Origin: an uncultured Gemmatimonadota bacterium
GTDB taxonomy: Bacteria; SM23-81; DAOVCL01
Direction: 5' to 3'
NCBI GenBank assembly: GCA_964626665.1
Contig: CAZVGK010000006.1
Span: 1-64,000 of the forward strand
DNA: 64,000 nt
Of the stretch, positions 21,199-44,862 are shown one piece after another; the first letter of the stretch is position 1; each line of letters opens with the position of its first letter. The notes beneath the pieces were generated by a model. That model made no database searches, was not told where the DNA came from, and was given only the letters and a program-made list of their open reading frames with translations. The translations under genes and the position numbers were made by a program.

Positions 21199-22424
21199 TC
21201 AGTTCAAAGTTGGTTCGACGATTCTACCCATAAAGAGTATCGTCCGGGAATGATTTTCTCGAATCACAAATACAAATGGCCGACAACTCGCATTGAAAAC
21301 CCACGGATACCTACAGTGCCGACCACTGAGGTAGCTGCTGCGGCTTCTGTGCCCTCTTCGTTTACCTCCACAAATGTTTTATGCTTTACCCTGCTAATGA
21401 ACAGACCACCTGGTTTATACATTTTAGTAAAATCAGCCTGTTGGGGATCGAAAGCTACTGCCATTCCCAATGCCTTCAAGACATCATTCAATTTTAGCCC
21501 GTATTCGAGGGTGAATTTGGGCAACTGCAAGAGCCCTTCCTGTGGGGAGAAACTGTTTATCCATCGGTTCCAATTCTCCTCATTAAATTCTGCAATCAGC
21601 TCATCGATATTCTTTTGCGGACGGGGAAGAAAAATGGTCATACTGAATTTACCATCGCCATAGGGTAAATCAATGGCCTGAAAATCGGGGGTTTCGAAGT
21701 ATTGAAAATCATTCTCCTGAGCCATCATCTTGCACGGTTTTTGGGAACCATCAGGCAGGGTAAACCAGTCATCTTGCGTCAGGCTTTGGTCAAACTCGTA
21801 AGTCCAGGTGCCCTTGAAATAGATGGCATTAATAAGAAACATAACATCTTCAATATCAATCCTACTCACAATTCGCTTTATTTTCCCATTGGTATTCTCA
21901 TCAACCCAACCATTGATTATGTTTGGAGAGGTTGGGTCGTTAAAGTCCAATCCCCTTACTACAGCACCGAAATATGTCTTACATAGATTGAGGGAATCCT
22001 CTTCAAAAGACCAGTTCTGACGATACCAGATGGAGTTTGCAATCTGAAACTTCACTTTTGGATCGAGTCCGGTTAACAATTCTATCAAGCTCTTGTAGGA
22101 CTCATTCATCTCTTGAATCGTCAAACCAGAAAGCTCAAGGGTTTTCTGCATTGCCTCTTGCGTGCTCCCATTGGCTCCGTTGTAGGTCATCCCCAAGGCC
22201 ATGGAAACGCTCAACGGAGAGATAAAAACATTCTCATCCCTTTCCTCTCTAACAATTTCCTTGAAAAGTTTGAGCCCGAATTTGTTGTCAGACTCAACCA
22301 ACCTTTTTTCCGCCCCAGTCAACTCACGCGGGGGTCTCTTGGTAGACGAAGAGGGATTTTTTGTGCATTGCATAAATCCAGCGCAGATGCAAAGCACGAT
22401 GGTAAGACTTAATATCTTAGACAT
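21199..22424 (-). pseudogene. Serpin (probable lipoprotein) with a 1-nt deletion frameshift near the C-terminus
   Basis: NVFISPLS, LINAIYFKGTW and hinge EEGTEAAAAT; the conserved tail RPFVFVIRE...ILFMGRIVEP lies in another frame after 21283; start at ATG 22424 after AGGAGG. Confidence 0.8.
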
Positions 22425-22534
22425 AATGCACCTCCTCATTTATGGCGAATCTCTCCTCCCATCCTTTCCAGAACCCCTTTGCCCAAAGAAGGATCGATAT
22501 TGCTAACCCGGGTGTGCAAAATTGCTACTATCCT

Positions 22535-27002: not shown

Positions 27003-27003
27003 T

Positions 27004-27816
27004 TTACCTTTCCGCAGAGAGGGTTTCCTGGAGATAATAGGCGCGACGGCGGGTCCGCAGCAGCTCCCAGTTTACCTGGTGGCCATCAAAATTCGGCCCA
27101 TCGACACAGGCAAAGAGGGTTTTCCCCCCTACCTCTACTCGACAGGCCCCACACATCCCCGTCCCATCAACCATAACGGTGTTGAGGCCGACGATCGTCT
27201 TTACCCCAAAGGGCCTTGTTGCCTCGGAAACAGCGCTGAGCATAAAGGTGCACCCCATAACAATGACCAGATCCACCTTCTCCCCCTTTTGGAGCAACTC
27301 GGCCAAATGGGAGGCGGAATGTCCCCTCTTCCCCCGGGAGCCATCCGCGGTGGAGATGATCAGCTCATCGCTCCATTGGCTTAGCCTATCCTCCCAGTAG
27401 AGGAGGAAGCTGCTCCGGGCCTCAATCATAGCGGTGACCCTGTTTCCCGCCAACTTAAATGCCTTGGCCAGTGGGTAGATGCTCCCTATGCCGTAGCACC
27501 CGCCCGCTAAGACAACCCGGCCTAAGCCCTGGGGCTCTAATGGTTTGCCCAGCGGGCCGACGAATGTGGGAACCTCGTCCCCAGCCACCAACTTGGCCAA
27601 CTTTGCCGTAGAGGTGCCCACCTGGAGGAAGAAGCAGGTGACCGTTCCCTCCTGGGGGTTCCAATCGGCCACGGTGAGGGGAACCCTCTCCCCGCTCTCG
27701 TCTGGGCGGATGATGACAAACTGGCCGGGCTTTAGCTTGGAGGCGATGAGCGGCGCGGAGATCTCCAGAAGATGGATGTTGGGGACGATCATCTCCCTGC
27801 GCACTATCTTATTCAT
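27004..27816 (-). CDS. nfnA: NfnA/SudB (FAD/NAD-binding 2Fe-2S subunit)
   Basis: PGQFVI, ERVPLT, GPLG, MVDGTGMCGACRV...ACVDGP. Confidence 0.88.
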   Translation of the reverse strand: MNKIVRREMIVPNIHLLEISAPLIASKLKPGQFVIIRPDESGERVPLTVADWNPQEGTVTCFFLQVGTSTAKLAKLVAGDEVPTFVGPLGKPLEPQGLGRVVLAGGCYGIGSIYPLAKAFKLAGNRVTAMIEARSSFLLYWEDRLSQWSDELIISTADGSRGKRGHSASHLAELLQKGEKVDLVIVMGCTFMLSAVSEATRPFGVKTIVGLNTVMVDGTGMCGACRVEVGGKTLFACVDGPNFDGHQVNWELLRTRRRAYYLQETLSAER

Positions 27817-30367: not shown

Positions 30368-30379
30368 CGCTTTGTATCC

Positions 30380-32245
30380 CTAACGGATGATGACGGCATC
30401 AAACTGACAGACTTCATAACAGTTGCCACACTTGGTGCAGAGCTCCTGATCAATCGTATGTGGTCCCCCTCTCTCCCCAGAGATTGCCTGGACTGGGCAG
30501 GTCTTCTTACAGACCTCACAGCCGGTGCATTTGTCCGGATCGATGGAGTAAGTGATTAGTTGTTTGCAGACTCCCGCCGGACATCTTCGTTCCTCAATGT
30601 GTGCCTCATACTCATCACGGAAGTATTTGAGGGTGGTCAAAACAGGGTTGGGGGCAGTCTGGCCCAGTCCACAGAGGGAACTGCTCTTCACGGTTTCCGC
30701 CAGCTTCTCCAGCTTCTTTAAGTCCTCTAACTTGCCCTCCCCTTGGGTGATTCGCTCCAATATCTCCAGCATCCTCTTGGTCCCCACCCGACAGGGAACG
30801 CATTTTCCGCAGGATTCCTTCTGGGTAAAGGAAAGGAAATAACGGGCTATATCCACCGCGCAGGTCTGCTCGTCCATCACGATCATCCCCCCCGAGCCCA
30901 TAATCGACCCTGCCTGCACCAGAGATTCGTAGTCAACCGGGAGGTCAAGCTTGGCTGCCGGCAGGCAACCACCGGAGGGCCCCCCGGTCTGCACCGCCTT
31001 AAACCCCTTGCCGCCCGGAATCCCCCCCCCAATCTGGTAGACTATCTCCCGTAAGCTAATGCCTAAGGGGACCTCAATGAGTCCGGTACGTTCTACTTTT
31101 CCCGCCAAAGCAAATGTTTTTGTCCCCTTGCTTGTGGGGGTTCCATATTGGCTATACCAATCGCCCCCATTGCGCAGGATGTGGGGGAGGGTGGCCAGGG
31201 TCTCCACATTGTTGATCACGGTTGGTTTCCCCCAGAGCCCGGAGACCGCTGGGAACGGGGGACGGGGGCGGGGCATTCCCCTCTTCCCCTCAATGGATGA
31301 GATGAGGGCGGTCTCCTCCCCACAGACGAAGGCGCCGGCACCCTTTTTAAGCGAGATGGAAAAGCTAAAGTCAGAGCCTAAAATTCCTTCCCCTAAGAGC
31401 CCATAATCGTTCAACTGGCTGATGGCCAGCTGCAGCCTCTCCACAGCTAAGGGATATTCTGCCCTGATATAGATAAAGGCCTCCTTGGCGCCAATCGTAT
31501 AGCCGGCGATGAGGATACCCTCTAAGAGGGCATGGGGATCCCCTTCGATGAGAGAACGGTTCATAAAGGCGCCTGGATCACCCTCGTCAGCATTGCAGAT
31601 GAGGTATTTGGGATGGGTGGGGGAACTACGGCAGATCTCCCACTTTCGCCAGGTGGGAAACCCCGCCCCCCCCCTTCCCCTGAGGCCTGATTTTCTGAGC
31701 TCTTCTATGATCTCCCCCGGTTTCATCCCCAAGGCCTTCTCCAACCCCAGGTAGCCATTGTTGACCAGGTACTCCTTAATATCCTTTGGGTCTATGAAGC
31801 CGCAATTTTTTAAGACAATCCGTACCTGGGGGGCCAGCATAGGTAGGTCAAAGAAGCTGGGGATGCCATCAATCCCTCCCTCTCCCAGCTTACCAAGGGC
31901 ATATTCTGCACAGGGATCGTCTCTTAAGAGCCATCTTTCCACTAAGGCTTTTACCCTTTGAGGGGAGACTTGCTGATAAAGGATGAGGGGATAACCAGGT
32001 TTTTCAATCCCGACGATAGGTTCTAAGTAGCAGAGCCCTACACACCCCACTTCAATCAGATGGGCATCTATCTTCTTGGCTTCCAGCTCACCCCTAAAGG
32101 CCTGCAGCACCTCCAGCGCTCCGGCTGCCCGCCCACAGGTTGCTGCTCCCACCAGCACTCGGGGTCTTCTGCTGTGATCTGCCTTCCATTGGGAGTTGAT
32201 CTGTTCCCTTATCTTTCCCAGATTTTTTTCATTGGTTAGCGGCAT
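30380..32245 (-). CDS. HydB/NuoF-like FMN subunit with C-terminal 2x[4Fe-4S]
   Basis: GRGGAGFP, NADEGDPGAFM, GGPSGG, SCGKC..CR, EAH..CPAGVC and a ferredoxin tail. Confidence 0.9.
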   Translation of the reverse strand: MPLTNEKNLGKIREQINSQWKADHSRRPRVLVGAATCGRAAGALEVLQAFRGELEAKKIDAHLIEVGCVGLCYLEPIVGIEKPGYPLILYQQVSPQRVKALVERWLLRDDPCAEYALGKLGEGGIDGIPSFFDLPMLAPQVRIVLKNCGFIDPKDIKEYLVNNGYLGLEKALGMKPGEIIEELRKSGLRGRGGAGFPTWRKWEICRSSPTHPKYLICNADEGDPGAFMNRSLIEGDPHALLEGILIAGYTIGAKEAFIYIRAEYPLAVERLQLAISQLNDYGLLGEGILGSDFSFSISLKKGAGAFVCGEETALISSIEGKRGMPRPRPPFPAVSGLWGKPTVINNVETLATLPHILRNGGDWYSQYGTPTSKGTKTFALAGKVERTGLIEVPLGISLREIVYQIGGGIPGGKGFKAVQTGGPSGGCLPAAKLDLPVDYESLVQAGSIMGSGGMIVMDEQTCAVDIARYFLSFTQKESCGKCVPCRVGTKRMLEILERITQGEGKLEDLKKLEKLAETVKSSSLCGLGQTAPNPVLTTLKYFRDEYEAHIEERRCPAGVCKQLITYSIDPDKCTGCEVCKKTCPVQAISGERGGPHTIDQELCTKCGNCYEVCQFDAVIIR

Positions 32246-32248
32246 AGG

Positions 32249-32731
32249 TCAATCGTATTTGTTAAGTATCTTCATTGCCTTGAAAGGGGTCATCTTTCCA
32301 TAGACCTTGTCATCGACCACCACGACCGGGGCTAAGGCGCAACAGCCAAAGCAAGCAATCCTTTCCAGGCTGAACCTGCCATCTTCTGTAGTTCCTCCTG
32401 GTTTTACCTGCAGTTCGTCCTGCACAAAATCGAGGATCCTGGCTCCCCCCCGCACATGGCAGGCCGTTCCCAGGCAGACCTTGATTGTGTGCCTTCCCGG
32501 TTTGGTGAAGCGAAATTGGGAGAAGAAGGTGGCTACACCAAAGACCTCGCTTGCTGATAGCTTAAGATGGTCCGCTACCTGACCCACGGCCTCCTGGGAT
32601 ATGTAGCCAAGCCTCTCTTGCACCTCCTGGAGAAGGGGGATTAATTCACTGTTTTCTCTCTTGTGCTTTGAGAGGATGTTCTTAAACCCCTCCTGCGGAG
32701 ACTTTCCCTGTTTTATTGGGTGTTTAATCAT
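32249..32731 (-). CDS. HydC/NuoE-like 2Fe-2S subunit
   Basis: VCLGTACHVRG and CFGCCALAP. Confidence 0.9.
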   Translation of the reverse strand: MIKHPIKQGKSPQEGFKNILSKHKRENSELIPLLQEVQERLGYISQEAVGQVADHLKLSASEVFGVATFFSQFRFTKPGRHTIKVCLGTACHVRGGARILDFVQDELQVKPGGTTEDGRFSLERIACFGCCALAPVVVVDDKVYGKMTPFKAMKILNKYD

Positions 32732-32740
32732 AGGTTGCTG

Positions 32741-33193
32741 TCAATCATAGGATAGGCGAGTCTTCTCATCCGCCAGTAGTGGCCCAATAATTTTCTGCCA
32801 TTCTGGGGAGTCCCATGTCCCCAATTTTGTATGCACAGTGAAGTATTTCTGGGGAATTGGGTGCGTCCCCACAACCACCTCTATCCCATATTTTGCCTTA
32901 ATGAATTCTTGAAAATAGGTTGTGTAGGGACAGGGGGGGTATCCGACAACCAGGCCGGTGGCCAGGTGAATCACCTGCACCCCATTTTTGGCCATCTCCT
33001 CGGGGGCATATTCAATGTTCCCCCCCGGGCAGCCGCCACAGGTTGTATATCCAACCAATTCCAACTCCTTGGCCTCTTTATAGATGCTAAATGCCCCTTC
33101 CCTATTCTGTAGAGATCTAAAACACTTGCCCCCAGCGCACATCCGGTAACGGTCACAGATGATAATCCCGATTTTAATTTTGTTTTTCATCAT
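32741..33193 (-). CDS. CGGC-domain protein
   Basis: IIIC..CAGGKC, TCGGCPG, HLATG, CP and VVGTH motifs. Confidence 0.85.
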   Translation of the reverse strand: MMKNKIKIGIIICDRYRMCAGGKCFRSLQNREGAFSIYKEAKELELVGYTTCGGCPGGNIEYAPEEMAKNGVQVIHLATGLVVGYPPCPYTTYFQEFIKAKYGIEVVVGTHPIPQKYFTVHTKLGTWDSPEWQKIIGPLLADEKTRLSYD

Positions 33194-34372: not shown

Positions 34373-34913
34373 CCTTCAATTTTGACCACAGGGAGATCCT
34401 CTTTCGATTTGACCTTAATCGTCTCTCTGTGGTCTCATTCTTGGGGGAAACCCAGGAGAGGAAATAAACCCAAAATATGCAGGAACCACAGATGAACACA
34501 GCGCGGCAAAGCCGCAATAAAACAATTCACCGCAAAGTCGCAAAGAACGCAGAGTTTAAAGAAAAAGACTCACCACGGATAAACACGGAGTAACACGGAA
34601 AGAAAATAGAGATTACCGTCAACTAATCGTTTTATTTCATTTCCCTTTTGCTTTTTATTTCCTCTGCGATCTTAGAGGCTTTGCGGTTGACACAAAAAAC
34701 TTTGCCAAAAAAACAAGATCTTGCAAGATTGTATTACAGATTTTCACAGATTATATAAGTATCTTCAAGAATATAGGCTTTCACCTTTTAAGTGGAAAAG
34801 GGGGTCAAACTCAATTTTTAAGAGCTCTTCGTTTAGAATATCTCGTGGTTTCCTAACGCATAATCTGGGATAAACTCTTCAGAACATCCCTCAACCCAAT
34901 ATTTCTCAGGCAG

Positions 34914-34942
34914 AATGTAAAACTTAAGGAGCTAAATATCAA
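34914..34942 (-). promoter_or_regulatory. Candidate sigma70 promoter
   Basis: TTGATA-17 nt-TACATT, just downstream of the hairpin at 34973-34998. Confidence 0.45.
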
Positions 34943-34972
34943 GGGAAAATTTTCATAATCCCCCATAAAAGC

Positions 34973-34998
34973 GAATGGCCTGAGGATTCAGGCCATTC
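34973..34998 (-). terminator. Probable terminator after the glutamate-synthase-like gene
   Basis: GAATGGCCTGA-loop-TCAGGCCATTC, then GCTTTT on the minus strand. Confidence 0.65.
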
Positions 34999-35033
34999 TG
35001 GGAAATGGGATGGGCATTTGCGGGATTCAGTAG

Positions 35034-36614
35034 TTAGTCGTTGAGTATCTCCTCTGCCTCCCTTTTGTCTACATCCATAATATAGTGGATTCCGCTGATC
35101 TCTGCTGCTTCCTTAGTGAGGGCGGCGATGTCGTCCCGGGTGATATACTCCAGGGTAAACTTTCTCTCCCCAGCCATGATCTGCCGTAGGCCCTGGGATA
35201 ACCTTTGCATATAGGTGTAGAGCCCCAATGCCCCCGTAGGGATATCGTAGAACCTATCTCCCAATTGCTCCTTTAACTCTGGAGCAGAGATAAAGATCTC
35301 CTCGGCCTTTGTCCCGAACCTTTCGATATAAACCGGGACCTGACCTTCATCGATCCTCTTACCAATGGTCTTACCGACCATGGCAGCAGTGAGGGGCGCT
35401 CTGGCCATACCAATGAGCTTGAAGTAGGGAGCCCCTAAGGCCAGACCTTTAAAGATCTGATCTTCAAAGGCAAAGCCTCCGGCGATGGCGATGTCCGGCA
35501 CATACTTACCCTTCTTGGCAAGTTTGTCGACATACTGGTAGAGTAGCGAATGGAGTTCGATTCCTGGAACCCCCCATTCGTTCATCATCCGCCAGGGGCT
35601 CATCCCTGTTCCTCCACCGGCAGCATCTACGGTGAGAAGGTCGATCTTTCCCTCAGAGGCGAACTTCACTGCTCTGGCTAAATCCACAGGACGATAGGCT
35701 CCCGTTTTCAGGAAGACATACTTGGCCCCTCCCTCTCTAAGTTCCTGAACCCTCTTCAAGAAGCTCTCCTTCTCCACCATCCCTACCCGGGAATGCCTCT
35801 CAAACTCTTTGAAGCTTCCACTTTCAAAGGCCTTGATCACATTGGGATCCTCTGGATCGGGGAGAACGATATATCCCCTCTTCTTGAGCAACTGGGCCTT
35901 CTTGAGGTCCTTGATCTTGACCTCACCGCCGATGTCCTTGGCCCCCTGGCCCCATTTGAGCTCCACAGCCTCCACTCCGAGCTTTGAGATGGCATACTCT
36001 TGAACGCCGAGCTTGGTGTCTTCGATATTGGCCTGGACGATGATGGCCCCGTATCCGTCCTGCTGCCATTGCCTGTAGAGGTTGATCCTCCATTCAAGAT
36101 CGGGAGAGTGGACGATCTTACCGTTCTTTATTTCACTATCCACATCCATTCCGCAGACATTTTCCCCAATGGTCAAGGGAATCCCAGCAAGGGCCGCGCC
36201 AATGGCCAGCCCTTCCCAGTTGATTTTGGCGATGTTGGTAGAGCCCAATCCGGGAATAATTAAGGGAAGTTTCACTTTGATTCCCTTATCATGGCCAATG
36301 GCTGTTTCAATTTTGACATTTCGGAAAAGAGCCTTGTTGCTGTCGGCTTCGATACCATAAGCACCAGCGGCAGTGCCCAGGATGGTGAAATGGGAAAGAT
36401 CAACGGGGTATTCCTTTTCGCTAGCCGTGGTGATAATACCAAAGGGTTGAGGATAGATAACCTCTGTGCCCCTGTAGGCAGACTTGCCCACCTCACACAT
36501 CCCGATGCATCCGTCGACACAGGTTGTACAGAGACCGCTGAGCTTATTGATTGACTCATCCGTGCGATTCTTCGTCAGGGTGGCAGCGCTGGTGTTGATT
36601 CTTGAGTATGACAT
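35034..36614 (-). CDS. Stand-alone FMN-binding glutamate-synthase-family protein with N-terminal Cys cluster
   Basis: CTTCVDGCIGMC, IGEN, ELKWGQGAK.IGGE, D.AGGGTG, AGG; no glutamine amidotransferase domain. Confidence 0.85.
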   Translation of the reverse strand: MSYSRINTSAATLTKNRTDESINKLSGLCTTCVDGCIGMCEVGKSAYRGTEVIYPQPFGIITTASEKEYPVDLSHFTILGTAAGAYGIEADSNKALFRNVKIETAIGHDKGIKVKLPLIIPGLGSTNIAKINWEGLAIGAALAGIPLTIGENVCGMDVDSEIKNGKIVHSPDLEWRINLYRQWQQDGYGAIIVQANIEDTKLGVQEYAISKLGVEAVELKWGQGAKDIGGEVKIKDLKKAQLLKKRGYIVLPDPEDPNVIKAFESGSFKEFERHSRVGMVEKESFLKRVQELREGGAKYVFLKTGAYRPVDLARAVKFASEGKIDLLTVDAAGGGTGMSPWRMMNEWGVPGIELHSLLYQYVDKLAKKGKYVPDIAIAGGFAFEDQIFKGLALGAPYFKLIGMARAPLTAAMVGKTIGKRIDEGQVPVYIERFGTKAEEIFISAPELKEQLGDRFYDIPTGALGLYTYMQRLSQGLRQIMAGERKFTLEYITRDDIAALTKEAAEISGIHYIMDVDKREAEEILND

Positions 36615-36797
36615 CTCTCCTCCTTCTTCAAAGTAATGAGAATTGAGAATTGAGAAAAAATTAAAAGATTTTTGAATTTTTGCTACTCACTTCTGCTTCT
36701 TATTTTTCCCATATATGCTGTAAGCTATGTGTCTTTTTCCATATCTCTAAAACCTCAAAACTTTTTGTTTTCATTCTCGGTTTTTACTACTCAATTC

Positions 36798-37490
36798 TCA
36801 CTTCTGTTTCTTCTCTTCTGCCTCTTTTAGAAGACAGGCTGCACAGGGGTCCATAGAGCATTGAGCGTCCTCATATATATCAAGGCACGGGTAGCTCAAA
36901 TTTTGACAACCGCCGCAAAGGGTTGTGGGTGGTTGGGACCCCTGACACCTAAGCTGAACGACCGGACAGATGTACATACAGGCGCCACAGGTTCGGCAAA
37001 CATCCGACTTAATATCGAAAGGAGTGGCAATCTTCCTATCTTTCCCCCTGTTCACAAATCCTATTGCTTTTGCTCCCATCTGCTCCTCGCACATCCGAGT
37101 GCAAAGGCCGCAGAGGATACAGTCGTCATTTCTGGGTTTGAATCGAACCTTAGTTACCCCAAGTTTGGAGGCAAGATCCTGAATTGTCTTTGAGTTCGGA
37201 GAGGCGGCAACGAGAAGTTCTACCAGCATCTTCCGTGCCTTGATCACCCGCTTCGAATGGGTCCGCACCTCCAATCCTTCCTCTACCGGGTAGGTACACG
37301 AGGTTACCAATCGGCTTTTTTGAGGATCTGAGCCAATTTCTACCACGCAGAGCCTACAGGCTCCATAAGGGGAGAGTCCCTCGTGGTAACAGAGAGTGGG
37401 GATGGGAATTCCATAGAAGCGGCAAACCTCTAACAGAGTTTGCCCCTCTTCTGCCTGAACATCTATACCGTTCAATCTCAAATTTACCAT
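36798..37490 (-). CDS. HydA/NuoG N-terminal-like Fe-S subunit (no H-cluster or Mo domain)
   Basis: IPTLC..GACRLC..SC, CILCGLC..C, CRTCGAC..CP and a Cys-rich tail; start at MVNLR (37490) overlaps the upstream stop. Confidence 0.85.
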   Translation of the reverse strand: MVNLRLNGIDVQAEEGQTLLEVCRFYGIPIPTLCYHEGLSPYGACRLCVVEIGSDPQKSRLVTSCTYPVEEGLEVRTHSKRVIKARKMLVELLVAASPNSKTIQDLASKLGVTKVRFKPRNDDCILCGLCTRMCEEQMGAKAIGFVNRGKDRKIATPFDIKSDVCRTCGACMYICPVVQLRCQGSQPPTTLCGGCQNLSYPCLDIYEDAQCSMDPCAACLLKEAEEKKQK

Positions 37491-40400
37491 GTTTTTACTT
37501 CCTCGATGGCTTTCAGTGACTTCTCCCACTGATGAAATTTCTCCAAATCTACCTCCAGATCACACCGGAGACATCGTTTTGCCTCCTTCATAGCCATCTG
37601 TGCTGTGTATCCCAGATCCACTTCCTTGAAGTTGTCCTTCCTGGCGTCCACTGAAAGGGTAGGACCCTGGACCTGACCATAGGGCACGGGTTCGGCCTCC
37701 AGATCGTAGTAGGTATCTACATGTTTGGTGACCCTCCAAGGATACACTCGGGTCCTATCAGGTCTCAAGTACTGGTCAATGGCTACGGCTCCTCGCTCTC
37801 CTGCTGCCACAGCCCGGATGACCGTTGCTGGGCCCGTGGCCACATCCCCACCGGAGAAGACCCCAAGAATCGATGTCATCCCCCATTTATCAGTCTTGAT
37901 AGTGCCGTCCTTGTTCGTTACCACCTCCAGGCCGGTGAAAAGCTCCCTTATGTCCGCAAATTCCCCAATGGCAGGGATGACGGTGTCTACCTCCATCCGA
38001 TAGGTTTTGTCGGGTTGAGGGATCGGTCTCCTTCGACCACTGCTGTCAAACTCACCCAACCGCATGCGGACCACCTCAACCCCATTGACCCGATTTTCCC
38101 TCTCAATGATCTTCGTAGGAGCTACCAAGAACTCAAGCCTAACGCCTTCCTGAAGAGCCTGTTCAATCTCCTCTTCGAAGGCTGGCATTTCCTGTCGAGT
38201 TCGTCGGTAGAGAATCGTCACCTCCTCGGCGCCCAGTCGGAGTGCAGTCCGTGCTGCATCAATGGCCGTATTGCCTCCACCCACCACAACAATCCGCTTG
38301 CCCATCTTCACCCGCCGCTTCAAGTTTACATCCCGCAAGAAATCTACACCCTGTACTACCCCCCGAAGCTCCTCTCCGGGAATTCCCATTCTCCTATCCC
38401 CGTACATTCCCACAGCCACATAGAAGGCCTGGTATCCTTCATCGAAAAGCTCCAAGAGCTTCACATCCTTGCCGACCTGGGTGTATAAGTTGATCTCTAC
38501 CCCCATAGCCTCGATACGTTCAATCTCCTGTTGCACCACCCTCTTGGGGAGCCTATTTTCCGGGATAGCTATGGCCAGCATCCCGCCCGCCACAGGCAAT
38601 GCCTCAAAAACAGTCGGTTGGTAACCCAAACGGGCCAGAAAGTAGGCGCACGAGAGGCCAGCGGGACCTGCACCGACGATTCCCACTTTGTGGGGAAGCT
38701 TCTCCTTTGGGGTACCTCCCGGAGGAAGGATCAAATTCTCCTGTTCGTAGTCTCCGATGAACCGTTTCAACATCCGGATAGCCACAGGCTCATCAATCTG
38801 ATTCCGCCTGCACTTGGACATACAGGGATGGTCGCACACCCGACCACAGATTGAGGGAAAGGGATTGGTGTCCAGAGCCAGCTCGAGGGCCTCCTGGAAT
38901 CGCCCTTCCCCAATGAGTGATACATATCCAGGGACATTCATCCCAGCAGGACAGGCATTCTGGCAAGGAGAGATGAAGAGCTCCCGGCAGACACCAGCGG
39001 GACATTTCCGCTGCTTGATGTGGGCCTCATACTCGTCCCGGAAGTAACGCAAGGTAGAAAGCACAGGGTTTGAAGCTGTCTGCCCAAGGCCACACTGGGA
39101 GGTATCCTTGACCACCTGGGCCAGCTCTTCCAGAAGTTCCAGATCTCCTATCTTTCCCCTTCCCTCCGTGATGTCGGTGACGATCTCCAGCATCCGGCGA
39201 ATTCCCTCTCGACAAGAAAAACACTTGCCGCAGGATTCATCCTGGAGGAAATTCAGGAAGTACTTGGCCACATCCACCATACAGGTATCCTCATCCATGA
39301 CAACCATGCCACCAGATCCCATGATGGAGCCTGCCTCGGCCAGCTTCTCATAGTCTACCGGGAGATTCAGAAGATCCTTCGGGATACATCCACCAGAGGG
39401 TCCCCCTGTCTGAACTGCTTTGAATTGTTTGCCCTCGGGAATGCCACCGCCAATGTCGAAGATGATCTCCCCCAAACTCATCCCCATAGGTACTTCCACC
39501 AGACCGGTGTTGTTTATCTTGCCCACCAAGGAAAATATCTTTGTCCCCTTGCTCTTCTCCGTTCCAATGCTGGAGTACCAATCTGCCCCTTTAGTTATGA
39601 TCAGCGGCACATTGGCCCAGGTCTCTACATTATTGATGTTGGTTGGCTTGCCCCAAAGGCCCTTTATAGCCGGGAATGGTGGTCGCTGCCTCGGTTCTCC
39701 CCTTTTCCCCTCGATGGAGGCAATGAGGGCGGTTTCCTCACCACAGACAAAGGCACCTGCTCCCCTGCTTATCCGAATGTCAAAGTCAAAACCTGAGCCA
39801 AGGATATTTTTTCCTAACAGCCCGCATTCTCTGGCCTGTTCCAGAGCAATAGTCACATTCTTAACAGCCAGGGGATACTCATTCCGAACATAGATTATTC
39901 CCTCATTTGCACCAATGGCATAGGCTCCAATGACCATTCCCTCTAAGATGCTGTGCGGGTTTCCCTCCAAGAGGCTCCTGTCCATATAGGCGCCTGGATC
40001 TCCCTCATCTGCATTACAGATGATATATCTTTTGTCCCCTTTGGCCCTGCGGCAGAAGTCCCATTTGTATCCTGTGGGAAACCCAGCCCCTCCTCTTCCT
40101 CTTAGTCCGGATTTCTTCACCTCTTCTATGATTCCCTCTGGATTCATCTTACTAAGGGCCTTAGCCAACGCCTCATATCCTCCGACGGCTATATAATCTG
40201 TGATCTTAGTGGGGTCAACAAGGGGATTGTTACCAAGGATAAAACGCTGTTGTTTTCTATAAAAGGGTATCTCCTTCTCGTGGACAAACTTCTCTCCCGT
40301 GTTGGGGTCAGTGTAGAGCAGCCGTTCGATCACCTTTTTTCCCAGGACAGTCTTTGTTATAATCTCCCCTGCATCCTCTGGTTTTAAATGCACATAGAAG

Positions 40401-40651
40401 ATTCCCTCTGGCTGGAGGATCATATTGGGTTCAACTTGGCAAAAGCCGTGACAGCCCGTTACCTTGATGACGACCTTGTCCTCTAAATTGCGTCTTTTGA
40501 TCTCTTCCTTAAATGCCTGCACAACCTTGTCAGATCCTCGTGCCAGGCCACAGGTGCCTGAGGATATGGTAATGCAAGGGATTTGAGGAATCCCCTTGAT
40601 AATGGCTTCCCTTAGTTCCTCAAGTTGTTCGGGAGACGCTATCCTCTTCAT
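37484..40651 (-). CDS. HydB/NuoF::GltD-like fusion flavoprotein
   Basis: NuoF motifs in the N-terminal half, then SPCQNACP, ICGRVC, GAGPAG, GGGNTAID, YRR and terminal EAKRCLRC. Confidence 0.9.
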   Translation of the reverse strand: MKRIASPEQLEELREAIIKGIPQIPCITISSGTCGLARGSDKVVQAFKEEIKRRNLEDKVVIKVTGCHGFCQVEPNMILQPEGIFYVHLKPEDAGEIITKTVLGKKVIERLLYTDPNTGEKFVHEKEIPFYRKQQRFILGNNPLVDPTKITDYIAVGGYEALAKALSKMNPEGIIEEVKKSGLRGRGGAGFPTGYKWDFCRRAKGDKRYIICNADEGDPGAYMDRSLLEGNPHSILEGMVIGAYAIGANEGIIYVRNEYPLAVKNVTIALEQARECGLLGKNILGSGFDFDIRISRGAGAFVCGEETALIASIEGKRGEPRQRPPFPAIKGLWGKPTNINNVETWANVPLIITKGADWYSSIGTEKSKGTKIFSLVGKINNTGLVEVPMGMSLGEIIFDIGGGIPEGKQFKAVQTGGPSGGCIPKDLLNLPVDYEKLAEAGSIMGSGGMVVMDEDTCMVDVAKYFLNFLQDESCGKCFSCREGIRRMLEIVTDITEGRGKIGDLELLEELAQVVKDTSQCGLGQTASNPVLSTLRYFRDEYEAHIKQRKCPAGVCRELFISPCQNACPAGMNVPGYVSLIGEGRFQEALELALDTNPFPSICGRVCDHPCMSKCRRNQIDEPVAIRMLKRFIGDYEQENLILPPGGTPKEKLPHKVGIVGAGPAGLSCAYFLARLGYQPTVFEALPVAGGMLAIAIPENRLPKRVVQQEIERIEAMGVEINLYTQVGKDVKLLELFDEGYQAFYVAVGMYGDRRMGIPGEELRGVVQGVDFLRDVNLKRRVKMGKRIVVVGGGNTAIDAARTALRLGAEEVTILYRRTRQEMPAFEEEIEQALQEGVRLEFLVAPTKIIERENRVNGVEVVRMRLGEFDSSGRRRPIPQPDKTYRMEVDTVIPAIGEFADIRELFTGLEVVTNKDGTIKTDKWGMTSILGVFSGGDVATGPATVIRAVAAGERGAVAIDQYLRPDRTRVYPWRVTKHVDTYYDLEAEPVPYGQVQGPTLSVDARKDNFKEVDLGYTAQMAMKEAKRCLRCDLEVDLEKFHQWEKSLKAIEEVKTW

Positions 40652-40654
40652 TTT

Positions 40655-41131
40655 TTACTCTCTTCCTAAGAGTGAAACGACCTTTTGGGTGCTCATTTGC
40701 CCATAATAGGTGCCGTCTTTGACCACAATTGGCCCAATGGCACAACATCCCAGGCAGTTGACGGTCTCCAGGGTATATTCTCTGTCTTGGGTTGTCTCTC
40801 CCGGTTTAATTTTCAGCTTTCTCTGCAGTTCATCCACGATCCGAGGACTACCTCTCACATGACAGGCAGTGCCAAGGCAGACGGTTATTAGGTGTTTCCC
40901 CCTCGGTTTGAGACTGAAGGACTTATAAAAAGTGACTACCCCATAAACATCAATCAGAGGAAGTTCCAACCCTTCGGCAACCCTACGGATAACCTCCCGG
41001 GGAAGCCAGTTATACAAGGCTTGAACATCTTGCAGAATGGGAATGAGAAATTCCTTTCTCCTGCCGTAGGAACTCAATACCGCATCAACTTGCTTGAGAT
41101 CAATTTCCATAGTAGGTTCTTTCTGAAGCAT
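40655..41131 (-). CDS. HydC/NuoE-like 2Fe-2S subunit
   Basis: VCLGTACHVRG and NCLGCCAIGP. Confidence 0.9.
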   Translation of the reverse strand: MLQKEPTMEIDLKQVDAVLSSYGRRKEFLIPILQDVQALYNWLPREVIRRVAEGLELPLIDVYGVVTFYKSFSLKPRGKHLITVCLGTACHVRGSPRIVDELQRKLKIKPGETTQDREYTLETVNCLGCCAIGPIVVKDGTYYGQMSTQKVVSLLGRE

Positions 41132-41133
41132 TT

Positions 41134-41541
41134 TTATCTCCCCCGAAAGAATACAGAGTAAGTGTTGTAAAACTCCTTTAGAGCCGTCTCGATCTTCTCA
41201 AACTCAATTAGGTGCTTTTTGCAGCCCCGACGGGTGCAAATTTCCACAACTCCGCCCCTGGCAAGCCACATAGGGGCCATAGGTGCGCCGCATTGCTCGC
41301 AGGTCCTGGTGGACTTAAGCTCGGCTTCACAGAAGGGGCAGAAAAACCTAACTACCGTCCCTTGAGAGATGGGATACTCTGTCTCAACCTCGTAGCTTCC
41401 ATAAAGGGCACTTAATCGAACCCATCCCCGCTTCCCATCAAACTCCGCGACAATTCCGACACTGGGGTGGCCATCTATCTTGTGTTCGTTATCCATCAAT
41501 GACTGTTTACAATGTGGACAAATAACTTTCAAAGGGATCAT
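41134..41541 (-). CDS. Cys-rich (zinc-ribbon-like) protein
   Basis: CPHC, CPFC, CEQC and CTRRGCKKH; 2 nt from the nuoE-like gene; GAGGAG RBS. Confidence 0.75.
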   Translation of the reverse strand: MIPLKVICPHCKQSLMDNEHKIDGHPSVGIVAEFDGKRGWVRLSALYGSYEVETEYPISQGTVVRFFCPFCEAELKSTRTCEQCGAPMAPMWLARGGVVEICTRRGCKKHLIEFEKIETALKEFYNTYSVFFRGR

Positions 41542-41574
41542 AAGTTATCTCCTCAAGATTTTGTGCTACTTTAA

Positions 41575-41778
41575 CATTTCGGAATTTTTAAGAAATTCTG
41601 AAATGTCGGGGGTTATTTGAAGTCCTGCACTTATGCATAAGTGCAGGATTCAATCATGACAGCGGAGCACCAGAGGGTCGGTGCTCCGCCAGCTCACACC
41701 GAAATTAAGTTAGCGACCGACGGAGCTACTATTGGGGACATTAAATAGCGCTTGTCCGAAAAGTACGTAGCTTCGTCT
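41575..41778. repeat. Multi-hairpin structured repeat, copy 2
   Basis: Same block order as 4548-4714, with different internal stems. Confidence 0.65.
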
Positions 41779-41783
41779 TTTGA

Positions 41784-41886
41784 TGTCATTGCGAGCGACT
41801 GTAAGGAGCGAAGCAATCTGTTTAATATCAGGAGATTGCTTCGGCCAGTTCCCTCACTTGCGCTCGGAACAAGCCTCGCAATGACA
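41784..41886. repeat. Palindromic repeat family A, full doublet
   Basis: TGTCATTGCGAG...GAAGCAATCT...GAGATTGCTTCG...CTCGCAATGACA; 41832-41886 matches the reverse complement of 63531-63585 with 2 mismatches. Confidence 0.8.
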
Positions 41887-41924
41887 CTATGCTGAAAGAA
41901 TAGACGCTTGTAGCTAAAGATGAA

Positions 41925-43205
41925 CTAAGCGTAAAGCCCTCGGCTCTCGGCAGCCTGGGTCACCCTTTGGATGCCGACGATGAATGCCGCCGTCCGCATT
42001 TTCACCTTATATTCTTTAGCGGTTGCCATAACGGCGTTGAAGGCATTGACCATCACTCTTTCCAAATCCTCGTTCACCCGCTCCTCCGTCCAGTAGTACC
42101 CCATCCGATTCTGTACCCACTCGAGATAGGAGACCGTCACCCCTCCTGCGTTGCAAAGAATATCCGGGATAATGTGAACTCCCTTCTTGTAGAGAATAGC
42201 ATCGGCCTCAGGAGTTGTGGGACCGTTGGCCCCTTCAGCAAGCGCTTTTGCCTTGATTCGATCTGCATTTTCCTCTGTAATCTGCTCCTCAAGGGCTGCA
42301 GGAATGAGAATATCCACATCCTCTTCCAAAAGCTTCATAGGGTTATCGTACTTCTTGACCTTACCCATTTTCTCGAAGCCTTTTAGCGTCTTGGTCAACG
42401 TTTTGTGGGTATACTCGATGGCTTCTTTCATCGGGATTCCTTCTTTACTGTAAAAACCACCGTCGATATCGGAAATGGCCACAATCCTGGCTCCCATTTC
42501 CTCCAGGATCTCTCCTGCGAAAGAACCGACGTTCCCAAAGCCCTGAATGGCAACCGTCGCTTCGCTTAAATCTATTCCTATATGTTTGGCCATCTCCCGC
42601 ACGCAAATTGCCAGCCCTCTTGAAGTGGCCTTCTTCCTTCCTTCAGACCCGCACATCTCCAGAGGCTTGCCAGTAATCACCGCTGGAAGGAACCTCTTGT
42701 GGTGCATCGAATAGGTGTCCATCATCCAGCCCATGATCTGGGAGGTCGTGTTCACATCCGGGGCGGGTATGTCCTGATCCGGCCCGAAGAGATCCGACAT
42801 CTCCGCCATATATCTCCGGGAGACACGCTCCAGCTCATGATTGGAAAGATTCCTCGGATCTACTATCACGCCTCCCTTCCCACCACCAAAAGGCACGCCT
42901 ACTACCGCACATTTGTAGGTCATCCAGAAGGCAAGTGCCTTCACTTCATCCACCGTTACATTCTGGTGAAATCGAATCCCACCCTTTGCCGGTCCACGGA
43001 TGACCGAGTGTTGAACTCGGTAGCCCTTGAAAATTTGGATAGAACCGTCGTCCATCCGAATCGGCAGATTTACCTCTGTCACCCTGCGGGGTTCCTTGAT
43101 CAAGGCAATCTGGTTCTCCGTGAGATGGAGTATTTTAGCTGCCTGATCAAACTGCAGCATTGCCATCTGGAAAGGGGTGAGCTTTTTGGTGATCTTCTCA
43201 GCCAT
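41925..43205 (-). CDS. gdhA: Glutamate dehydrogenase (ELFV family)
   Basis: GPAKGGIRF, MTYKCA, GGGKGG, DIPAPDVNT, QGFGNVG, EGANGP; start MAEK (43205) after GGAGGAGG. Confidence 0.93.
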   Translation of the reverse strand: MAEKITKKLTPFQMAMLQFDQAAKILHLTENQIALIKEPRRVTEVNLPIRMDDGSIQIFKGYRVQHSVIRGPAKGGIRFHQNVTVDEVKALAFWMTYKCAVVGVPFGGGKGGVIVDPRNLSNHELERVSRRYMAEMSDLFGPDQDIPAPDVNTTSQIMGWMMDTYSMHHKRFLPAVITGKPLEMCGSEGRKKATSRGLAICVREMAKHIGIDLSEATVAIQGFGNVGSFAGEILEEMGARIVAISDIDGGFYSKEGIPMKEAIEYTHKTLTKTLKGFEKMGKVKKYDNPMKLLEEDVDILIPAALEEQITEENADRIKAKALAEGANGPTTPEADAILYKKGVHIIPDILCNAGGVTVSYLEWVQNRMGYYWTEERVNEDLERVMVNAFNAVMATAKEYKVKMRTAAFIVGIQRVTQAAESRGLYA

Positions 43206-43252
43206 TTCGGCTACCTCCTCCGAAATTGAAGTTTGGCTAAAACTATAAAGCA

Positions 43253-43281
43253 AAAATAATATAGTGACTCATCACTGTCAA
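43253..43281 (-). promoter_or_regulatory. sigma70 promoter of gdhA
   Basis: TTGACA-17 nt-TATTTT. Confidence 0.6.
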
Positions 43282-43298
43282 GATTTATTTTTTTCGAT

Positions 43299-43316
43299 TT
43301 GGGAAAAATTTCACAA
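43299..43316. promoter_or_regulatory. Rex-like operator
   Basis: TTGGGAA-AAAT-TTCACAA, one mismatch to TTGTGAA-N4-TTCACAA. Confidence 0.6.
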
Positions 43317-43335
43317 GAACCCTGTCTTTTGTGGC

Positions 43336-43364
43336 TTGACAGAGGGGGAAAAGATTTGTAATTT
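43336..43364 (+). promoter_or_regulatory. sigma70 promoter of the MATE gene
   Basis: TTGACA-17 nt-TAATTT. Confidence 0.55.
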
Positions 43365-43515
43365 CTTAGAGGCAATTCCAGATCCAAAGGGACCTTTTCC
43401 ATGTTCTTTGTGGATGTTATCATCCACAAAAAGACTTTCTCCGTCAGGGCAGGAGCCCTGGCAGCACAGAGAGGAGATAATGAGTAGCCCACTTTATAAA
43501 AGATCTACCCCCTAA

Positions 43516-44862
43516 GTGACCAGGGCAAAAAGGGATTTGACCCAGGGGAGCATTCCCCGGAATCTCATAACCCTGGCCCTGCCTCTGATCGCCGCCAACC
43601 TCTTGCAGACCACCTTTAACATAGTGGATATGCTCTTCGTAGGAAGGTTAGGGCCCCAGGCCATTGCTGCCATCTCCTTAGCTGGGGTGCTGTTGATGTT
43701 CTTGATGACCATTGCCATTGGCCTGGCTACTGGAACTCAGGCGATGATCTCCCGTTTCATCGGTGCCCAAAGGCCAAAGGAGGCGGAGGCGGTAGCCATC
43801 CAATCCCTCCTTCTGGGCCTCTTCTCCTCATTTCTGCTCTCCATCGTTGGTTTTTTTCTCTCACCTCTTCTCCTTGAACTGGTAGGGGCTAAGGGTGAGG
43901 TTTTCGTTTTAGGTAATGGTTATCTGCGGATTATGTTCTCTGGCATCTACACGGTTTTCCTCCTTTTCCTGGTCAGTGCCATCTTCCAGGGGGTGGGGAA
44001 TACGGTTACCCCAATGAAGATTCTCATCTTTTCTACCATCTCCAATATAGTCTTGGATCCTCTCCTTATTTTTGGCCTATGGTATTTCCCCCGCTGGGGG
44101 GTGAATGGGGCCGCTATTGCTACCGTCACGGCCAGAGGCCTGGGTATGATTGTAGGCATATACCTCCTCTTTAAGGGTAGATTGGGTATTCACCTCCATC
44201 TGAGGAAGATTCAGATGGATCTGGGGATGATGTGGCGGATCATCCGGATTGGGCTGTTTGCCTCCATCCAGGCTATCTTAAGGAATATCTCTCTGATAGT
44301 TATTGCTCGCATTGTTGCTTCCTTTGGCACCTTTGCCATCGCTGCCTATGGTATAGGAATGAGAGTGAGGATGGTGGTGATGATGCCCGGTTTCGGTTTG
44401 GCGGCAGCCACCGCGGTTTTGGTGGGCCAGAACCTGGGGGCAAAGAATCCGCGGAGGGCAGAGAAGAGCGGACTTTTCTCCTGCCTCTATTATGGTCTCT
44501 TTATGATCCTTGCCGGTGGTCTCTTCTTCGGCTTCGCCCATCCCATTGTCTCTGCCTTCAATTCACAGCCCGATGTGGTCAGGATAGGCGGTAACTATTT
44601 GCATATCCTCACTTTGAGTTTTGTCTTTTTAGGGACTTCTATTGTCTTGAGCAGGGCGATGAATGGAGCGGGGGATACCATCTCACCGATGGTCATCACT
44701 GGCTTTACCCTTCTTATCCTGCGTATTCCCCTTTGTCTTCTTCTCTCCTATAGTCTGGAAACAACCGGCATCTGGGCAGGGCTGGCCCTCTCCGATCTGG
44801 CCAATGGACTGATCACCTTTGGCTGGTTTCAACAGGGCAGATGGAAGAGGAGGAAGGTGTAG
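43516..44862 (+). CDS. MATE-family efflux transporter
   Basis: DLTQGSI, VDMLFVGRLG, NIVLDPLLIFG, GAAIAT, VGQNLGA; about 12 TM helices. Confidence 0.92.
   Translation: MTRAKRDLTQGSIPRNLITLALPLIAANLLQTTFNIVDMLFVGRLGPQAIAAISLAGVLLMFLMTIAIGLATGTQAMISRFIGAQRPKEAEAVAIQSLLLGLFSSFLLSIVGFFLSPLLLELVGAKGEVFVLGNGYLRIMFSGIYTVFLLFLVSAIFQGVGNTVTPMKILIFSTISNIVLDPLLIFGLWYFPRWGVNGAAIATVTARGLGMIVGIYLLFKGRLGIHLHLRKIQMDLGMMWRIIRIGLFASIQAILRNISLIVIARIVASFGTFAIAAYGIGMRVRMVVMMPGFGLAAATAVLVGQNLGAKNPRRAEKSGLFSCLYYGLFMILAGGLFFGFAHPIVSAFNSQPDVVRIGGNYLHILTLSFVFLGTSIVLSRAMNGAGDTISPMVITGFTLLILRIPLCLLLSYSLETTGIWAGLALSDLANGLITFGWFQQGRWKRRKV

Follow-up and report, generated by a model that had tools for sequence, protein, structure and literature searches.

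A Bfu-family flavoenzyme operon of uncultured anaerobes with a possible role in linking the metabolism of glutamate and ammonia to redox carriers

Enzymes of the Bfu family are central to anaerobic energy metabolism. To our knowledge, the third substrate of every member characterised so far is H2, formate, NADPH or an aldehyde, and the Stn/Nfn-Bfu transhydrogenases among them are said to comprise StnABC of Sporomusa ovata (8oh5) and the NfnABC enzymes of Caldicellulosiruptor and Thermococcus sibiricus. Here we describe a locus in a stretch of 64,000 nucleotides from an uncultured Gemmatimonadota bacterium (contig CAZVGK010000006.1; the whole stretch is called 'the window' below), in which a Bfu-type core is encoded together with a flavin mononucleotide (FMN) protein distantly related to glutamate synthase (GltS). 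The Bfu family itself is already known; new here is the combination of a Bfu core, a GltD module carried by BfuB and a GltS-like FMN subunit. Operons of this kind are common among uncultured anaerobes, in which they may connect the metabolism of glutamate and ammonia with redox carriers. We read positions 35034-41541 as encoding a single iron-sulphur (Fe-S) flavoenzyme of the Bfu family, with an FMN third-substrate site and amination of 2-oxoglutarate as the most likely reaction, and we hold the chances of this reading to be about even.

Schut et al. 2022 (PMC9304861) present a scheme of Bfu types, including Type 2, in which a short BfuA is combined with separate catalytic subunits. The tungsten aldehyde oxidoreductase-Bfu WorABCSL from Acetomicrobium mobile (PDB 9MQX), a Type 2 enzyme in that scheme, is described as having an A subunit, WorA, of about 247 residues that lacks both the A3 cluster and a catalytic domain and whose C-terminal region recruits separate catalytic subunits (PMC12318220). 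In NfnABC of T. sibiricus, the ferredoxin-like domain of BfuB carries clusters B3 and B4 and forms the low-potential branch, ferredoxin docking between this domain and the C-terminal domain of NfnC (PMC12018979). As to glutamate synthases, GltD is the natural electron-donor subunit of GltB in the NADPH-dependent glutamate synthase holoenzyme (GOGAT) (PMC8097209), and a presumed glutamate synthase dependent on F420 (FGltS) of methanogens was proposed from gene context alone (PMC3448663). A ferredoxin-linked GOGAT cluster of five genes is present in C. thermocellum (Clo1313_2032-2036), and its activity was never measured. Keyword searches of the literature turned up no Bfu enzyme that has a GltS-like subunit and no BfuB::GltD fusion, although the supplements of Schut et al. 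2022 may list the gene set; the first-pass annotation, made from the letters of the window, likewise knew of no characterised complex of such composition.

The locus, at first delimited as 35034-43316, comprises six open reading frames (ORFs), all on the minus strand, as are the other features of the window given with coordinates below. From upstream to downstream they encode a glutamate dehydrogenase (gdhA), a small Zn-ribbon protein, a NuoE-like BfuC, a NuoF::GltD fusion, a short Fe-S BfuA and the FMN protein. Their coordinates bear out the co-orientation and close spacing described in the first-pass annotation. The Zn-ribbon gene (41134-41541, 135 residues with four CxxC-type pairs) is separated by 2 nucleotides from the BfuC gene (40655-41131, 158 residues), which is separated by 3 nucleotides from the fusion gene (37484-40651, 1055 residues); the latter overlaps the BfuA gene by 7 nucleotides if BfuA starts at ATG 37490 (36798-37490, 230 residues). 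A longer BfuA would start at a GTG (36798-37529, 243 residues). We favour ATG 37490, which is residue 14 of the GTG frame, because of the translation, because the PDB alignments begin at residue 14-15 and because the relatives start there. Between BfuA and the FMN gene (35034-36614, 526 residues, the proposed catalytic subunit) lies an AT-rich spacer of 183 nucleotides (36615-36797) with a GGAGG ribosome-binding site at its end; no promoter-like or terminator-like site was called in it on the minus strand, and its fold z-score is -0.77. The operon likely ends at a terminator-like hairpin (34973-34998) with an 11-bp stem and a T-rich tail, 36 nucleotides past the stop of the FMN gene. An Rfam scan of 34500-43600 (E up to 1) returned only a long non-coding RNA row at chance level. 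Matches to a sigma-54 promoter consensus number 25 in the window for 24.65 expected, and none falls in this spacer or in the one between gdhA and the operon.

Judging by domain content and by alignment to solved enzymes, BfuC, the NuoF-like BfuB and the short Fe-S BfuA make up a HydABC-type Bfu core. BfuC, which stands beside BfuB as the NuoE-like subunit does in the Bfu family, has the 2Fe-2S_thioredx domain (PF01257, E 9.8e-50) and is matched by the HoxE/NuoE models of NCBIfam; it is a NuoE/HoxE-like [2Fe-2S] subunit. In the 1055-residue fusion, Pfam places Complex1_51K and NADH_4Fe-4S (PF01512, PF10589) at residues 178-544, and 2Fe-2S ferredoxin models of NCBIfam match residues 32-112. The part of the fusion that corresponds to BfuB (38987-40651, up to about residue 555) has the N-terminal [2Fe-2S] domain, the FMN/NAD(H) site and the B1 [4Fe-4S] motif of the long NuoF-type B subunits of the family. 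Its residues 29-559 align full-length to the bifurcating NiFe-HydB of A. mobile (7t2r_B, E 2.8e-235), and further solved B subunits match it as well: WorB (9mqx_B, E 1.3e-211), HydB (8a6t, 7q4v and 7p5h), NfnB (9n5u_B) and StnB (8oh5_B). By analogy with these enzymes, the core would be expected to couple NAD(H), ferredoxin and a third substrate tightly.

The remainder of the fusion (residues about 556-1055, 37484-38986) is a GltD/NfnB-type module. Pfam assigns Fer4_20 and Pyr_redox_2 to residues 555-951, which is the architecture of GltD, with two [4Fe-4S] motifs and a flavin adenine dinucleotide (FAD)/NADP(H) domain. The module matches residues ~102 to 567-594 of StnC (8oh5_C) and NfnA (9n5u_A, 9bov_A) at E-values of 1e-103 to 1e-125, and by this likeness it would be an NADP(H)/FAD site similar to the third-substrate site of the solved Stn/NfnABC enzymes. 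The alignment of the fusion to the solved BfuB chains ends at residue 559-568, as does that to a second, conventional BfuB of the window, which is 54% identical to the fusion only up to about residue 568. Beyond this point, the second BfuB continues into a ferredoxin-like domain and the fusion into the GltD Fe-S domain. The C-terminal ferredoxin-like domain with clusters B3 and B4, characteristic of Bfu enzymes, is thus missing from the fusion, and its position is filled by a different two-cluster domain, the Fer4_20 of GltD. Because the GltD module replaces the B3/B4 domain, the NADPH/FAD site would be found at the branch whose usual end point is ferredoxin.

BfuA contains Fer2_4 and a 4Fe-4S dicluster and resembles HoxU and the N-terminal part of NuoG. 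Neither Pfam nor NCBIfam finds a catalytic domain in it, in agreement with its initial description as a HydA-position subunit consisting of Fe-S domains only. In the ATG numbering, the [2Fe-2S] motif comprises C34, C45, C48 and C65, and the two [4Fe-4S] motifs lie at C124-134 and C165-175; no cysteine occurs between C65 and C124, hence there is no His-ligated A3 site. The best PDB match of BfuA is WorA (9mqx_A, E 5.8e-37), over residues 4-188. The family alignment shows eight conserved cysteines, C178-C219, in the C-terminal tail. In Type 2 Bfu enzymes, BfuA is devoid of the A3 and A5 clusters and of a catalytic domain, the third-substrate site being on extra subunits. The present BfuA is a candidate for this type: the A3 site and the catalytic domain are absent and the FMN gene is directly downstream, but the eight extra cysteines of the tail may form further clusters and binding of the FMN protein is putative.

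Is the FMN gene a genuine member of this operon? We addressed the question with two surveys. Using BfuB::GltD as a query against contigs from one genome per species, we fetched 80 loci and scored those with a BfuB/BfuA pair and at least 1.2 kb after BfuA. The FMN gene directly follows BfuA in five of the 80. Fused BfuB is found without the FMN gene in 25 genomes and with it in four (L002, L003, L009, L037), and unfused BfuB without it in 33 and with it in one (L073). In this set the Cys tail of BfuA is found only alongside the FMN gene: four genomes have both, 58 have neither, none has the tail alone and one has the FMN gene with a diverged tail. The FMN protein was then used as a query in metagenomes, where the gene is widespread, with at least 592 confirmed stretches; we examined 80 of these loci, or 79 once L136, identical to the window, was dropped. 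A BfuA gene (at least 50% identity) is directly upstream of the FMN gene in 73 of the 74 loci with more than 300 nucleotides upstream. The distribution of the FMN gene also takes in 20 of 301 Chloroflexota species genomes and three of seven in the bacterium's own phylum. The gene survey, together with the joint occurrence of the tail and the FMN gene, supports the earlier grouping of the FMN gene with the Fe-S genes, and by this conservation of gene order we regard the FMN protein as an integral part of the Fe-S flavoprotein operon. Physical assembly of the FMN protein with BfuABC is probable on the same grounds.

Two side observations concern this arrangement. In the single exception, L100 (9406-10989), the FMN gene has no Bfu gene upstream and divergently oriented genes occupy that place. 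In L103 (1308-2885) and L126 (1418-2269), a second, divergent FMN paralogue (46-48% identity) is located just upstream of the operon.

A FastTree phylogeny of BfuB residues 1-560 (118 rows, leaving out those without a scorable BfuA or without room for the FMN gene) places 57 of the 58 FMN-linked BfuB rows in one 84-row clade with 100% local support, the outlier being L157. FMN-less fusions mostly fall elsewhere, 21 of the 25 belonging to a separate 22-row group with 83% local support. Within the FMN-linked clade, fused and unfused BfuB interleave. This topology is that of an FMN-linked operon forming a lineage of its own, to which the GltD module appears as an exchangeable add-on. As an illustration, the BfuB N-terminal parts of L107 and L125, and those of L096 and L109, are near-identical (path lengths ~0.1-0.2), while the two members of each pair differ in the GltD module of about 490 residues.

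The FMN-less trio of BfuC, BfuB::GltD and short BfuA merits attention by itself. The 25 genomes that have it, with a tail-less BfuA, are found among L004-L046 and include Pelotomaculum terephthalicicum JT (L027) and a Thermovenabulum sp. (L011). The trio is possibly an alternative Nfn-Bfu transhydrogenase architecture, with the NADPH module placed on BfuB by its domain order; we did not find it described in the main text of Schut et al. 2022. It also bears on the initial proposal of a core that lacks any catalytic output by itself, which is only partly right: BfuA has no catalytic domain, but the GltD module has the features of an NADP(H) site, and the 25 species genomes in which the trio occurs without the FMN gene also speak against it.

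We now turn to the FMN protein itself. It matches Glu_synthase (PF01645) with 48.1 bits, above the cut-off of 20.4, and a six-frame search of the genome scores its gene at 35.6 bits. Pfam shows no amidotransferase domain, and an N-terminal motif, C29-x2-C32-x3-C36-x3-C40, has its four cysteines at least 90% conserved; the initial description of a protein with a Cys cluster and without a glutaminase domain is thus accurate. The family is tight: the best 120 of 8000 scored matches are 74-90% identical, nearly all 526 residues long, and come from bacterial and archaeal metagenome-assembled genomes, the nearest named relatives being from Aminicenantes, Thermoplasmata, Theionarchaea and WOR-3. Among the relatives, only 190 clusters (at 50% identity) reach an E-value of 1e-30. 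In an AlphaFold2 model, the protein is an FMN TIM barrel (pLDDT, the model's confidence score, 83.8), with the N-terminal 34 residues at low confidence.

Several motifs are common to the FMN protein and E. coli GltB, with similar spacing: GEN/GEG, ELKWGQGAK/QIKVAQGAK, GGGTGMSP/DGGTGASP, AGG/DGG and Q194 (IxQ). When the FMN family is aligned with GltB by hhalign, the probability is 75%, in the C-terminal half, and G150-E151-N152, Q194 and Q223-G-A-K226 align with the GltB motifs. R246 lies 20 residues past K226, as R957 does past K937 in E. coli GltB by hand count, MAFFT shifting it by three columns. These shared motifs are in keeping with a distant relationship of the FMN protein to the FMN domain of GltB. 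One of its own relatives is an 800-residue fusion (P0238), which combines a 2x[4Fe-4S] ferredoxin, an FrhB/FdhB-type F420 dehydrogenase and a GltS-like domain 38% identical to the FMN protein, and matches PF01645 over positions 57-305.

How might such an enzyme work? NAD(H) would bind to BfuB, whose NuoF-like part would form the electron-bifurcating core with BfuC. In a Type-2-like complex, BfuA would serve as the electron conduit that joins the FMN/B1/C1 bifurcation site to the FMN subunit. The 8-Cys tail of BfuA would presumably connect the core with the Cys4 cluster of the 526-residue subunit and, through that cluster, with its FMN, this subunit being the third-substrate site. The other branch would use NADP(H) in fused forms and ferredoxin in unfused ones, NADPH entering or leaving at the branch that leads to ferredoxin in the solved Bfu enzymes. 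At the third site, 2-oxoglutarate and free ammonia would be converted to glutamate by reductive amination, with no glutaminase domain and no ATP involved, and the reaction would be driven by NADH jointly with NADPH and/or reduced ferredoxin. We estimate the glutamate/2-oxoglutarate + NH4+ couple, from known equilibrium constants, at about -130 mV in the standard state and about -280 mV at low ammonium. Glutamate oxidation could not feed both branches, because this couple is well above NAD(P)H and ferredoxin. With two donors, by contrast, reductive amination would run strongly downhill, as would suit an assimilatory enzyme that spends no ATP. Direction and stoichiometry of the reaction are, for all that, only weakly indicated. 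If the scheme is correct, anaerobes may possess a third, hitherto unrecognised route of ammonium assimilation, in which Bfu-type confurcation from NADH and ferredoxin or NADPH aminates 2-oxoglutarate on a glutaminase-less GltS-like subunit; we advance this as a tentative idea, less likely than not.

The gene neighbours of the operon speak to the same question. The longest gdhA ORF starts at TTG 43253 (41925-43253, 442 residues; ELFV_dehydrog, E 2.4e-82, ELFV family), and a sigma-70-like site at 43281-43253 precedes an ATG at 43205, which is likely the actual start on this evidence; the end coordinate of 43316 initially given to the locus needs correcting, as in-frame stops lie downstream of that point. 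The spacer that separates gdhA from the operon (41542-41924, 383 nucleotides, fold z-score -7.5) is made of dispersed palindromic repeats of at least three kinds, pieces of which recur 61 times across many contigs of the same genome and which have no Rfam family. Such a spacer probably separates gdhA and the operon into two transcription units. GDH-like genes (for glutamate dehydrogenase) are found in 21 of the 79 FMN-linked loci (0.97 Mb) against three of 74 FMN-less Bfu control loci (1.17 Mb), one of the three positive controls being L022, whose contig breaks inside a closely related fusion gene. The initial inclusion of gdhA in the set is not supported: the gene is enriched beside the operon and is not a conserved member of it, being present in about a quarter of the loci, either upstream or downstream and at times on the other strand. 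It would be a functionally related but separate enzyme, with a putative promoter region of its own. The contigs of two close relatives, G002 and G004, end short of the place where gdhA would be looked for.

For a census of the other neighbours, all ORFs of 85 FMN-linked loci were clustered and the representatives scanned against Pfam. GDH occurs in 22 of the 85 loci, a GAF histidine kinase in 18 and glutamine synthetase (GlnA) in 13, the last in most cases immediately upstream and in the same orientation. Peptidase genes of the M1 and M50 families are repeatedly found near the operons, and a lineage-specific downstream set consists of an M50 peptidase, a class I Trp/Tyr tRNA synthetase, ScpA and ScpB. 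The Zn-ribbon protein gave only sub-threshold zinc-ribbon matches and no family in Pfam and NCBIfam. Its homologues are present in ten of the 79 metagenome loci, and also in L022 and L037, where they lie between BfuC and BfuB; it is an optional accessory, and the 'redox-regulated' character at first ascribed to the module finds no support. The position between BfuC and BfuB is taken, in many operons, by the thioredoxin-like [2Fe-2S] domain of BfuB (query residues 27 to ~115), present there as an additional copy, in the place where others hold the Zn-ribbon gene (L096, L102, L109, L117, L121-L123, L138, L145, L148, L007, L008, L013, L024, L027 and L038).

Does the bacterium have a conventional glutamate synthase? 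Its genome is 99.65% complete and has one GlnA. Searches of this genome found no GATase_2 (PF00310) and no GXGXG domain (PF01493), while the same searches match in 13 of 14 and 14 of 14 control genomes, respectively. Because both domains are absent, we conclude that the genome has no canonical GOGAT, a point in favour of a link of the operon to glutamate; the glutamine amidotransferase and GXGXG domains of the holoenzyme are found neither fused nor as separate genes. Among the 301 Chloroflexota genomes, GXGXG matches occur in 16 of the 20 FMN-positive and 204 of the 281 FMN-negative ones, a tally that takes in G049, G192, G269 and G173 (all GXGXG-positive and FMN-negative), as presumably does that of the FMN gene. 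Strong matches of the large-GltB type (E up to 1e-50, counted by hand) are found in two of 20 against 179 of 281, a difference that is confounded by kinship, the FMN-positive Chloroflexota genomes being mostly small, and that we do not use as support. A weak GATase_2 match was seen in three of five FMN-positive genomes tested, in G007 at 3 kb from a GXGXG gene.

A number of results weigh against 2-oxoglutarate as the substrate, and others against the unity of the system. The PF01645 match covers only profile positions 185-303 of 369. In Foldseek, glycolate oxidase, flavocytochrome b2, lactate oxidase and IDI-2 stand level with GltS (1ofd at rank 6) or above it, at near-equal scores. In VIA-align, the top rows are IDI-2, flavocytochrome b2 and hydroxy-acid oxidases over ~290-317 residues, and the 50 rows listed (Z 25.1-26.8) include no GltS entry; the model of FMN-dependent alpha-hydroxy acid oxidases, PF01070, has no match in the FMN protein at E up to 0.001. 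A single-sequence PDB search with the FMN protein returned nothing at E up to 0.01, and with a profile of the family the GltS chains come up only at E 0.21. Where GltB has the C-x5-C-x4-C loop of its 3Fe-4S cluster (GCKYLRICHLNNC in E. coli), the aligned region of the FMN protein has no cysteine; the four N-terminal cysteines may serve as the Fe-S entry site in place of this loop. As for the motifs, we presume that GEG(G)E, IKQ, QGAK and a basic residue about 20 past the QGAK lysine are those that bind 2-oxoglutarate or 2-iminoglutarate, and we found no open paper naming the residues of the GltS synthase site.

All this would suit an FMN subunit that belongs to the same complex and acts on another substrate, such as a 2-oxo acid or imine, lactate, 2-hydroxyglutarate or an enoate-type compound, its likeness to GltS then being a family resemblance. 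Its fold is tied to those of glycolate oxidase, flavocytochrome b2, lactate and mandelate oxidases and IDI-2 (Z 25-27), its relatives also score on the FMN_dh and IMPDH models, and it lacks glutaminase and GXGXG domains in addition to the 3Fe-4S loop. However, the QGAK loop and the GEN motif are common to the FMN protein and GltB, and we know of no hydroxy-acid oxidase with either. Furthermore, GDH and GlnA genes are enriched beside the operon, and about half of the operons have a fused GltD, which is the natural partner of GltB. Another substrate is thus the alternative that survives best, and still a rather unlikely one. Glutamate and 2-oxoglutarate, proposed as substrates from the outset, are candidates only, given the distance from GltB and the fold tie with hydroxy-acid oxidases and IDI-2, and we would place them slightly below even odds.

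The unity of the system is questioned first by the gap between BfuA and the FMN gene, 183 nucleotides here for an approximate median of 54 in relatives (range 2-513). Because of this gap, co-transcription of the two genes is only putative in the window. Then, gdhA is missing from about three-quarters of FMN-linked loci. The GltD module is dispensable, too: BfuB is fused in 33 of these loci, unfused in 30 and could not be assigned in ten, so that 30 of the 63 scored operons retain an unfused BfuB, and in the BfuB tree the module switches at least ten times inside the FMN-linked clade, on well-supported branches. Finally, we considered and rejected the FMN gene as a simple substitute for GOGAT, since elsewhere it coexists with split-type or canonical GOGAT genes.

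Could BfuC, BfuB::GltD and BfuA instead be self-sufficient, as a Stn/Nfn-like NADH-ferredoxin:NADP+ transhydrogenase, with the FMN protein and gdhA as separate users or producers of NADPH? In 25 species genomes the trio does occur with no FMN gene, its GltD module is matched by the NADP(H) domain of StnC/NfnA, the FMN gene has its own ribosome-binding site after the 183-nucleotide gap, and a GDH would supply or consume NADPH. However, 21 of those 25 FMN-less fusions fall outside the FMN-linked clade and their BfuA has no Cys tail, whereas in FMN-linked loci the FMN gene follows BfuA in 73 of 74 cases whether GltD is fused or not (33 versus 30). Moreover, a conventional transhydrogenase is probably already present, in the form of an NfnAB-like pair at 25605-27816, as identified by gene similarity: an NfnA/PyrK-like gene (27004-27816) and an NfnB/GltD-like gene (25605-27002). 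We consider a self-sufficient transhydrogenase improbable. The last alternative, a catabolic enzyme that converts glutamate to 2-oxoglutarate and ammonia alongside GDH in a peptide fermenter, passing electrons to NAD+ and NADP+, has in its favour that the groups of the nearest named relatives (Aminicenantes, Thermoplasmata, Theionarchaea, WOR-3) ferment peptides, that GDH is a frequent neighbour and that M1 and M50 peptidase genes recur nearby, yet it is equally hard to credit, as a couple estimated at about -130 mV is too high to reduce both branches of a bifurcating core and the assimilatory gene GlnA is a recurrent neighbour as well.

The NfnAB-like pair is part of a second group of redox genes directly downstream of the operon. 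It begins with a CGGC-domain protein (32741-33193), followed by a second BfuC (32249-32731), the conventional BfuB with a ferredoxin-like tail mentioned above (30380-32245, 621 residues) and an 852-residue BfuA with molybdopterin domains (27809-30367). The cluster 27809-33193 resembles a formate-dehydrogenase (Fdh)-type Bfu. Further downstream, on the same strand, 21264-22439 encodes a 391-residue serpin-family protein (PF00079, E 6.4e-105), adjoining an M50/PDZ site-2 protease and a DXP reductoisomerase.

A Bfu member with a relative of glutamate synthase as a working subunit would connect electron bifurcation directly with the central metabolism of nitrogen and carbon. Because the FMN subunit is widely distributed and unusually well conserved, its function bears on the annotation of many uncultured sediment organisms. 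Were the assimilatory role to prove true, low-potential electrons would replace the ATP of the glutamine synthetase-GOGAT pathway and allow high-affinity glutamate synthesis in many energy-limited sediment bacteria and archaea, and estimates of the cost of nitrogen assimilation in energy-starved anaerobes would change. The fused and unfused GltD forms would then constitute a natural experiment on the donor of the low-potential branch in Bfu enzymes.

How does the proposed amination enzyme compare with the systems already described? With WorABCSL it has in common a bifurcating BfuBC core and a short BfuA devoid of A3 and catalytic domain. It differs in its partner, an FMN/[Fe-S] GltS-like protein in place of the tungstopterin WorSL, in its BfuA tail, which has eight conserved cysteines where WorA has a zinc finger and helix adaptor (no alignment extends beyond residue 188), and in its BfuB, where the GltD module stands instead of the ferredoxin-like domain. 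Like the Stn/NfnABC enzymes, it unites a Bfu core with a GltD/NfnB-type FAD/NADP(H) module containing two [4Fe-4S] clusters. In those enzymes, however, the module is inserted in BfuA (StnC/NfnA), on the mid-potential path. Here BfuA (230-243 residues) has Fe-S motifs only and no GltD-like domain, and GltD is at the C-terminus of BfuB, in the place of the B3/B4 domain where ferredoxin docks; the FMN protein adds a fourth redox subunit. The likeness to GltBD (E. coli b3212/b3213; Azospirillum 1ea0/2vdc) lies in the order of the predicted electron path, from a GltD-type unit through Fe-S clusters to an FMN TIM barrel, and in the QGAK, GGTG and DGG/AGG motifs of the GltB FMN domain. The glutaminase, central and GXGXG domains of GltBD are absent from the operon, glutaminase and GXGXG even from the whole genome; the N-terminal Cys4 motif replaces the 3Fe-4S loop, the sequences are very distant and a NuoEF-type bifurcating core is added. 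The putative FGltS, lastly, shares the principle of a GltS-like subunit with a dedicated electron-input module, which in its case is an F420H2 dehydrogenase module and not a Bfu core; the P0238 fusion, whose Cys motif at the junction is similar to that of the FMN protein, resembles the FGltS idea.

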